Shown here: in pieces, positions 23,829 through 24,743 of the stretch | How the letters are laid out: each line of letters opens with the position of its first letter | Position numbering within the stretch: position 1 is the first letter of the stretch | Assembly: GCA_964402215.1 (NCBI GenBank) | Contig: CAYOAT010000002.1 | Coordinates: 67,155-125,319 of the forward strand | Source of the DNA: an uncultured Candidatus Saccharibacteria bacterium | GTDB taxonomy: Bacteria > Patescibacteriota > Minisyncoccia > Phycocordibacterales > JAACPR01 | Direction: 5' to 3' | Length of the DNA: 58,165 nt | Translations under genes and position numbers: made by a program | The notes under the pieces: model-generated | What the model saw: the letters and a program-made list of their open reading frames with translations, nothing else | Told to the model about the DNA's origin: nothing | Database searches by the model: none

Positions 23829-24743
23829 ATGGCGAATAGGCACCTTTCACGATCAATAGTGTTACAAACCCTCTTTGAGTGGGATTTTAGAGGAAATTTG
23901 CCATTAGATGTTGATGAATCTATTTTACGAAATGCGACAGAATTTGCTCCAGGAATAAGTGATGCTCCTTTTATGAAGAATTTGGTTGAATTGGTTTTAA
24001 GCAAAAAATCTGAGCTAGATAAAATTATTACAAAAGCTGCGCCTGACTGGCCACTGGATAAAATTTCTGTTGTGGATAGAAATATTTTACGAATTGGTTT
24101 AGCAGAATTATTATTTTCTGATCGTGATGAAGTTCCTTCAAAAGTTGCTATTAACGAAGCTATTGAATTAGCAAAAACATTTGGCGGTGAGTCGTCCAGT
24201 AAATTTGTGAACGGAGTTTTGGGTGCCGTTTATAAAGAAATTGGTGAACCAGGAAAAGATGATGGGAAGCCAAAGAAGCGTCGCGATATTCCATTTGAAG
24301 AAATGCCAATTGAGAAAAAAGCCGGAGCCGTTATCTATTCTGTAAGTGAAGGCGAAATTTTTATTGCTTTGGTTCATGATGTATTTGGACACTGGACACT
24401 TTCAAAAGGTGGAATAGAAAAAGATGAAACTGAAACTGATGGAGCTGTTCGTGCTATTCAGCAAGAATTAGGTATTAATATTGAAATTGTTGAAAAAATT
24501 GGTGAAAACGAATATGTAGCTAATCATCCGGAAAAAGGTCAACATCGAAAACAAGTCGTTTACTTTTTAGCAAAATCAAAATATACAGAATTAAAGCTTG
24601 GTGAATCGGGCGGACTTGATGACGCACGTTGGTTTAAACTTTCTGAAATTCTTGACCTTAATTTTTATGATGATATCCTGCCTTTAGTTACCAAAGCGGT
24701 AAAGAAGCTAGTAGAAGTTGACGCCGCGGTTACTACATCCTAA
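23829..24743 (+). CDS. nusB: NusB fused to a C-terminal NUDIX domain
   Basis: RHLSRSIVLQTLF, DRNILRIG, VAINEAIELAKTFG, FVNGVLG, then GHWTLSKGGIEKDET...ELG. Confidence 0.92.
   Translation: MANRHLSRSIVLQTLFEWDFRGNLPLDVDESILRNATEFAPGISDAPFMKNLVELVLSKKSELDKIITKAAPDWPLDKISVVDRNILRIGLAELLFSDRDEVPSKVAINEAIELAKTFGGESSSKFVNGVLGAVYKEIGEPGKDDGKPKKRRDIPFEEMPIEKKAGAVIYSVSEGEIFIALVHDVFGHWTLSKGGIEKDETETDGAVRAIQQELGINIEIVEKIGENEYVANHPEKGQHRKQVVYFLAKSKYTELKLGESGGLDDARWFKLSEILDLNFYDDILPLVTKAVKKLVEVDAAVTTS

Follow-up and report, generated by a model that had tools for sequence, protein, structure and literature searches.

A 304-residue open reading frame (ORF) in the window, the whole 58,165-nucleotide stretch of DNA analysed here, encodes a complete NusB domain joined to a Nudix domain of the ApnA-hydrolase type. 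Two metal-binding glutamates of the Nudix box are replaced, and the residues that line the adenine and phosphate pocket of such hydrolases are kept. At slightly better than even odds (roughly 0.55), we read the Nudix half as a tethered binding module in which catalysis is dispensable and which would hold an adenine nucleoside polyphosphate moiety near the NusB-S10-boxA complex. The fusion joins two known kinds, a NusB protein and, on this reading, a non-catalytic Nudix sensor. Full-text literature searches returned no description of a NusB-Nudix protein, and NCBI and JGI label the fusion proteins as NusB only.

Architecture of the fusion protein

NusB is a universal, well-studied factor that partners with S10 (NusE) on boxA RNA and acts in rRNA transcription and maturation. 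The fusion ORF is the sole NusB copy in this genome (738 kb on 10 contigs, 97.8% complete). It lies among the following features of the window:

23501..23737, + strand: rpmF (ribosomal protein L32), the conserved upstream neighbour
23741..23768, + strand: terminator-like hairpin 3′ of rpmF, a consensus match only, of a kind no more frequent than expected by chance
23781-23809, + strand: promoter-like TTTACT-17-TAGAAT, also a consensus match only and not above chance frequency
23829..24743, + strand: nusB::nudix fusion ORF, 304 aa, with ATG at 23829 and TAA at 24741-24743
23829..24242, + strand: all-helical NusB domain, residues 1-138, from PF01029, TIGR01951, PDB matches, AF2 and Foldseek
24243..24308, + strand: linker GEPGKDDGKPKKRRDIPFEEMP, residues 139-160, charged and disordered
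24309..24713, + strand: Nudix fold of the ApnA-hydrolase type, residues 161-295, acidic with a net charge of -6
24408..24476, + strand: degenerate Nudix box, residues 194-216, with A209 (24453-24455) in place of the Glu of REU and Q212 (24462-24464) in place of the first Glu of EE
24753..25460, + strand: rnc (RNase III), which begins 10 nt past the nusB::nudix stop codon and is the downstream neighbour phylum-wide
25490..27733, + strand: smc, short at 747 aa, the conserved next gene

Pfam assigns residues 7-136 of the fusion protein to NusB (E 2e-34) and residues 175-279 to NUDIX (E 3.6e-14). The NusB half scores 126 bits with the NCBIfam equivalog model TIGR01951 (cut-off 88.35), covering positions 2-130 of 131, and 119 bits with PF01029 (versus 23.1). 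It also matches NusB structures in the PDB by sequence at E 6e-19. In an AlphaFold (AF2) model of the fusion protein, built from a 72-sequence alignment (mean pLDDT 84.8), this half forms seven helices spanning residues 4-138, which Foldseek matches to 3r2d (TM 0.84) and 1eyv (TM 0.81). By HMM score and fold, residues 1-138 are a bona fide NusB. Like the NusB proteins of E. coli, Aquifex aeolicus, Thermotoga maritima and M. tuberculosis (3r2c/3r2d, 1tzt, 3d3b and 1eyv), this is a complete single-copy domain. Unlike these characterised proteins, the window protein continues into a C-terminal extension of ∼165 residues comprising the linker and the Nudix fold. We know of no characterised NusB that carries such an accessory domain.

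The Nudix half (PF00293, 53 bits versus 21.1) is modelled as an alpha/beta/alpha domain over residues 161-302, with its strands and the helix 202-214 at a pLDDT of about 90. Linker residues 141-152 are disordered (pLDDT <50), and no fixed contact between the NusB and Nudix domains is seen in the model. The pTM of 0.50 is as expected for two domains without a fixed mutual orientation. Stand-alone NusB proteins of the class end in the same EIGEPxKD motif that opens the linker, so the Nudix domain was added onto a pre-existing charged tail. The preliminary description of this DNA proposed a complete NusB followed by a charged linker and a NUDIX domain resembling Ap4A hydrolases, and this architecture is borne out by Pfam, NCBIfam and the AF2 model.

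Distribution and genomic context

The fusion is widespread. In the window's order, which belongs to the Patescibacteria and was sampled as 101 genomes with one per genus, it is a full-length single ORF in 98 genera and is cut by contig ends in the other three. It is therefore not limited to one assembly, as the misjoin considered in the preliminary description would be. More than 8000 proteins match the fusion in a collection of 5.8 billion proteins. Both Pfam domains are present in the best 120 of these matches, which, where named, are called ‘NusB’ of Paceibacterota, Parcubacteria or Kaiserbacteria. Together with a dN/dS of about 0.06 and an invariant pocket (see below), these counts already refute the reading of the fusion as an error of assembly or gene calling, or as a pseudo-domain decaying towards loss, and we consider the probability of that reading negligible. 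Elsewhere in the same class, 7 of 20 genomes have the fusion. A phylum sample of 401 genomes adds four further families (f34, f30, f80 and f129), and most other lineages in that sample have a NusB of 140-200 aa.

The gene order rpmF-nusB(::nudix)-rnc-smc is kept across the phylum, with or without the Nudix part, and rnhB and dnaE usually lie upstream of it. In some lineages (loci L023-L028), nusB is followed directly by rnc without any Nudix sequence. A separate homologous nudix gene (Pfam-checked), in another frame, sits exactly between nusB and rnc in at least 12 genomes, which represent 9 family-level groups. These stand-alone genes show that the Nudix protein can function as an independent chain. 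The occurrence of NusB and Nudix both as a fusion and as conserved neighbours is a classical signature of functional coupling, and it predicts a functional link between ApnA or RNA 5′-end chemistry and the transcription and processing of rRNA. The adjacency of the Nudix gene to nusB and rnc, on the other hand, could reflect the operon economy of a compact genome rather than functional coupling.

Relationship to ApnA hydrolases

Sequence, profile and structure matches place the Nudix half in the ApnA-hydrolase branch of the Nudix superfamily. Its best sequence matches in the PDB are the Aquifex Ap4A hydrolase 3i7u, MutT1/Rv2985, CT771, human NUDT2, Ndx1 and the C. elegans Ap4A hydrolase. A family profile of 25 members, both fused and unfused, gives E values of 4e-35 for 3i7u, 1e-22 for Ndx1, 2e-21 for the C. 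elegans enzyme and about 1e-19 for NUDT2. Foldseek matches the modelled domain to 3i7u (TM 0.85-0.90, rmsd 2.0-2.5 Å) and to the T. thermophilus Ap6A hydrolase Ndx1 (TM 0.85), with further matches to M. tuberculosis Rv2985, M. smegmatis MutT1, C. trachomatis CT771 and the human and C. elegans Ap4A hydrolases. The resemblance to Ap4A hydrolases, first noticed from short motifs, thus holds at the level of both profile and superposition. Like the asymmetric ApnA hydrolases (Aquifex aq_158 3i7u, Ndx1 1vc8, CT771, NUDT2 3u53, C. elegans 1ktg and Rv2985), the window protein has an HW..KG motif, a post-box Tyr, a K..V.YFL strand and a C-terminal Y.D that align. Unlike them, its domain is joined to NusB and two of its metal-binding helix Glu are replaced.

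RppH and NUDT2 are RNA 5′-pyrophosphohydrolases. Nudix enzymes of the ApnA-hydrolase type, to which the domain belongs, can act on 5′-triphosphate ends of RNA (PMC8616924), and its gene lies beside that of RNase III. The domain nevertheless falls below the cut-off of the RppH NCBIfam models, far below it for PRK00714 (29.1 bits versus 118), and it has Ala at the equivalent of the catalytic NUDT2 E58. Nudix domains across the family are acidic (median net charge -8, pI 5.1), which argues against a broad or extended RNA-binding surface, though not against a pocket for a terminal nucleotide.

A paralogue within the genome was considered as the source of the domain and rejected. The five other Nudix ORFs show no relationship to it outside the box, with at most 31% identity over at most 58 residues; none has the HW..KG motif, and four carry a canonical-type box.

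Erosion of the Nudix box

The box of the window protein reads G194-GIEKD-E200-TETDGAV-R208-A209-I210-Q211-Q212-E213-L214-G215-I216, letter for letter as first noted, and the codons cgt gct att cag caa gaa at 24450-24467 specify R208 to E213. Set against the consensus GX5EX7REUXEEXGU, the box has RA in place of RE and QE in place of EE, which upholds the initial claim that two Glu are replaced. E200, R208, E213 and G215 are retained. The box departs from the catalytic consensus and keeps one of the three helix Glu.

With two of the three helix Glu gone, turnover should be abolished or strongly reduced. In NUDT2, E58 is a metal-coordinating Glu. A209 aligns with residue 58 of 4ick/4ijx, the engineered E58A form of the human Ap4A hydrolase, and by this alignment would be a natural counterpart of the inactive mutant. 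NUDT2 dephosphorylates PPP-RNA, and its E58A variant is inactive, releasing no phosphate from this substrate (PMC8616924). By analogy with E58A, the Mg2+-dependent pyrophosphohydrolase activity of the window protein is predicted to be lost or strongly reduced. Some residual activity may persist, as E200, R208 and E213 remain. Catalytic residues outside the box are used by some Nudix enzymes.

A box census of the order, with one genome for each of 68 genera, shows that such substitutions recur. Of these genera, 24 have a canonical and 44 a degenerate box, and parsimony calls for at least 18 switches between the two states on a tree that, like the others used for such counts, is a FastTree or quick tree of a short alignment. 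The window box is among the most degenerate: only seven genera keep a single helix Glu, and the exact pattern in the window is unique in the sample. Site 209 is occupied by Glu in 28 genera, Lys in 19, Val in 13, Ala in 4, Arg in 2, and Ile and Gln in one each, so that 40 of the 68 genera lack the REU Glu. By comparison, E212 is retained in 60 genera and E213 in all 68. The Lys or Arg found at site 209 in 21 genera would put a positive charge at the metal position. This is compatible with metal-independent phosphate binding, and the basic side chain may act as a charge substitute for the metal ion.

Fusion as such does not account for the erosion. Unfused homologues of the Nudix domain have a canonical G..E..RE..EE.G box in 20 of 20 cases (12 beside nusB and 8 elsewhere). 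In a Nudix-domain tree built without the box columns, the sequences fall into two groups (SH-aLRT 99). The first contains all unfused homologues together with the fused proteins of families f34, f30, f80 and f129, and is canonical except for three very divergent sequences. The second is entirely fused, includes the window's order and is mostly degenerate. Since the fused proteins of those four families keep canonical boxes, erosion belongs to the window's clade, and we reject the idea that fusion itself causes it. The term ‘degenerate’ in the preliminary description is therefore apt for the window box and does not extend to the fusion in general, given the canonical boxes of 24 of 68 genera, of the second fused clade and of every unfused homologue. 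The survey of the fusion and its Glu substitutions that the same description had proposed thus yields a widespread fusion, with substitutions that recur in the window's order.

The census also bears on whether the domain is still an active enzyme. It might work as an ApnA hydrolase or as an RppH/NUDT2-like RNA 5′-pyrophosphohydrolase or decapping enzyme on nascent leader RNA, using E200, E213 and other acidic residues, with the fusion delivering it to the rRNA transcription complex. The canonical boxes of the unfused homologues, of the second fused clade and of 24 genera in the order fit such an enzyme, as do the invariance of E213, the presence of E212 in 60 of 68 genera, the RNA-processing function of the neighbouring rnc and the action of the structural relative NUDT2 on PPP-RNA (PMC8616924). 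However, E209 and E212 are both replaced in the window protein, and the single change equivalent to the first of these abolishes NUDT2 activity. Site 209 varies as freely as a surface residue, which is unexpected if catalysis is under selection, and RppH models reach at most 29 bits versus 118. We therefore regard an active enzyme in the window as rather unlikely. Some members of the clade may nonetheless depend on hydrolysis to a degree, as 35% of the order's genera have a canonical box.

Constraint on the adenine pocket

The pocket is invariant. None of the 68 genera departs from W189, K193, Y229, Y245, W268, Y280 or D282, and site 241 is Lys or Arg in all 68. The window protein has H188, K193, Y229, K241, Y280 and D282, which is the pocket set of ApnA hydrolases. 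Residue equivalences were taken from sequence and profile alignments. In NUDT2 and the C. elegans enzyme, respectively, K193 corresponds to K42 and K36, K241 to K89 and K83, and Y280 to F128 and Y121. H188 is the His of the HW motif (NUDT2 H37, C. elegans H31), and D282 corresponds to NUDT2 E130. Y229 aligns with the post-box Tyr of the Aquifex, Ndx1 and CT771 enzymes; against NUDT2 Y82 and C. elegans Y76 the alignment slips by 1-4 residues, and a single-sequence alignment pairs Y82 with H233. In Ap4A hydrolases, the mapped residues are reported to bind the P1 phosphate and to stack on and hydrogen-bond the adenine (PMC4734340; PMC2425470).

Change counts, obtained by parsimony on a 177-sequence tree, separate the two sets of sites. 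Site 209 requires 58 changes, which puts it at the 76th percentile for sites of the Nudix domain; site 212 requires 40. Among pocket sites there were 2 changes at Y280, 3 at D184, 4 each at K193 and W268, 6 each at W189 and Y245, and 10 each at Y229, K241 and D282. Site 209 thus evolves like an unconstrained surface position. The domain as a whole is nonetheless under strong purifying selection. When the window gene was compared with two relatives that have the same degenerate box (GERAQEG), the Nudix half gave a dN/dS of 0.061 and 0.065 and the NusB half one of 0.080 and 0.031, with dS of about 1-2 and the second pair near saturation. The degenerate Nudix domain is constrained as tightly as NusB and shows no decay.

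Strong purifying selection without intact catalysis would also be expected of a ligand-free protein-protein scaffold or stabiliser. The Nudix domain might then be an extra subunit of the antitermination complex or a dimerisation module. A precedent for the former is SuhB, an enzyme-fold protein that serves the E. coli antitermination complex. A search for SuhB/IMPase (PF00459) found none in this genome, to which the search was confined, and the acidic Nudix surface could dock on basic ribosomal proteins. Against this, the most conserved residues line the adenine and phosphate pocket rather than a separate surface patch, and the model has no fixed interdomain contact. SuhB, moreover, may be missing throughout the Patescibacteria, whether or not their NusB carries a Nudix domain, its absence having been seen in this genome only. 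On balance, a pure scaffold strikes us as quite unlikely.

The preliminary description had also proposed a nucleotide-sensing, possibly non-catalytic module, with Ap4A, ppGpp or capped RNA as ligands. From the invariant pocket, the free site 209 and the dN/dS of about 0.06, the domain is most likely non-catalytic and yet ligand-binding, as was suggested. For ppGpp, which the proposal also named, there is no specific support, since the pocket that is kept is an adenine-type one.

A proposed tethered binding module

Nudix folds that bind without hydrolysis have precedents. CFIm25/NUDT21 lacks two of four Glu, binds Ap4A and does not hydrolyse it (PMC2425470). The NUDT9-H domain of human TRPM2 binds ADPR, which is likewise not hydrolysed (PMC4974056). 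The Nudix domain of the regulator NrtR (3gz8) is among the Foldseek matches of the window protein. As in CFIm25/NUDT21, TRPM2 NUDT9-H and NrtR regulators, the window protein has a degenerate-box Nudix fold inside a larger machine. This likeness is a functional analogy and not a matter of membership. Unlike the window domain, those modules belong to other Nudix subfamilies with other partners, and none of them sits on a transcription elongation or antitermination factor.

The binding-module reading leads to the following scheme. The ancestral enzyme, with a canonical catalytic box, would have had its own gene between nusB and rnc. In the window's order, both genes are fused in every sampled genome, and the metal-binding helix Glu has been lost repeatedly. 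The outcome is a sole NusB tethered by a flexible linker of ∼20 residues to a Nudix domain that would descend from an enzyme of the ApnA (Ap4A/Ap6A) hydrolase type, in which the adenine-ring and first-phosphate residues of Ap4A hydrolases have presumably been kept invariant to hold a ligand. Candidate ligands are free ApnA/Ap4A or ATP, or the pppA or Np4A-capped 5′ end of an RNA. An RNA end is a candidate because NUDT2 shows that this type of Nudix domain accepts PPP-RNA ends. Binding may in turn affect antitermination or RNase III processing.

Two more specific versions may be put forward, although we hold it fairly improbable that either applies. In the first, the Nudix pocket would read the 5′ end of the pre-rRNA itself (pppA or an Np4A cap), and would also serve as an eraser where the box is kept. 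NusB-S10 on boxA, about 70 nt downstream, and the tethered pocket on the 5′ terminus would then form a two-point clamp. Such a clamp would prevent the leader from leaving the elongating polymerase before it can pair with downstream sequence for cleavage by RNase III, the product of the next gene. In the second version, the pocket would sense free ApnA. ApnA is a by-product of aminoacyl-tRNA synthetases, and the pocket would in this case couple rRNA synthesis directly to the state of translation. Either version would make the protein a nucleotide-gated or RNA-end-gated Nus factor, of a kind that to our knowledge is known in no bacterium.

The clade offers a natural series in which to ask what a Nudix pocket does once hydrolysis is dispensable. 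It runs from canonical unfused domains through canonical fused ones to fused domains that have Lys, Val or Ala where Glu would stand. These small proteins can be expressed in E. coli.

rRNA leaders and neighbouring genes

Downstream of the promoter, 6 of 9 16S leaders from the order, and the 23S leader of this genome as well, carry a boxA-like motif, (A/T)CTTTGA(A/C/T)AA, giving 7 observed occurrences versus 0.57 from shuffles. In this genome's rRNA locus (L008), the motif is at about 4640-4660 in the 16S leader, about 78 nt past the -10, and about 15290-15310 in the 23S leader; it also occurs in the 16S leaders of loci L031-L034 and L037. The motif is present in lineages without the fusion as well and thus does not discriminate between them. 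When the 16S promoters of genomes with and without the fusion were compared for the predicted +1 nucleotide, a position that cannot be fixed from sequence, no contrast emerged.

The rRNA genes of this genome are unlinked (G000:C1:48000-66000, locus L008, which lies outside the window). The 23S-5S and 16S genes lie on one strand with ∼7 kb of protein-coding ORFs between them, and the two have separate sigma-70-like promoter sites, TTGACT-17-TATAAT. The 23S gene measures 3337 nt versus a model of 2925 nt, and so carries about 400 nt extra. No YqeK (TIGR00488) was found in this genome, which has one HIT-family protein (C1:190646-190927).

Two further features of the neighbourhood deserve mention. 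A typical bacterial SMC has about 1150-1200 aa; the SMC encoded here has 747 aa, and its length is the same in relatives (loci L081 and L083). Finally, the longest dnaE ORF (19596-22958, - strand, with a TTG start) overlaps the start of the divergent rnhB (22842-23453, + strand) by about 115 nt. The true dnaE start probably lies further in, since relatives align from about residue 55-60 of this ORF.
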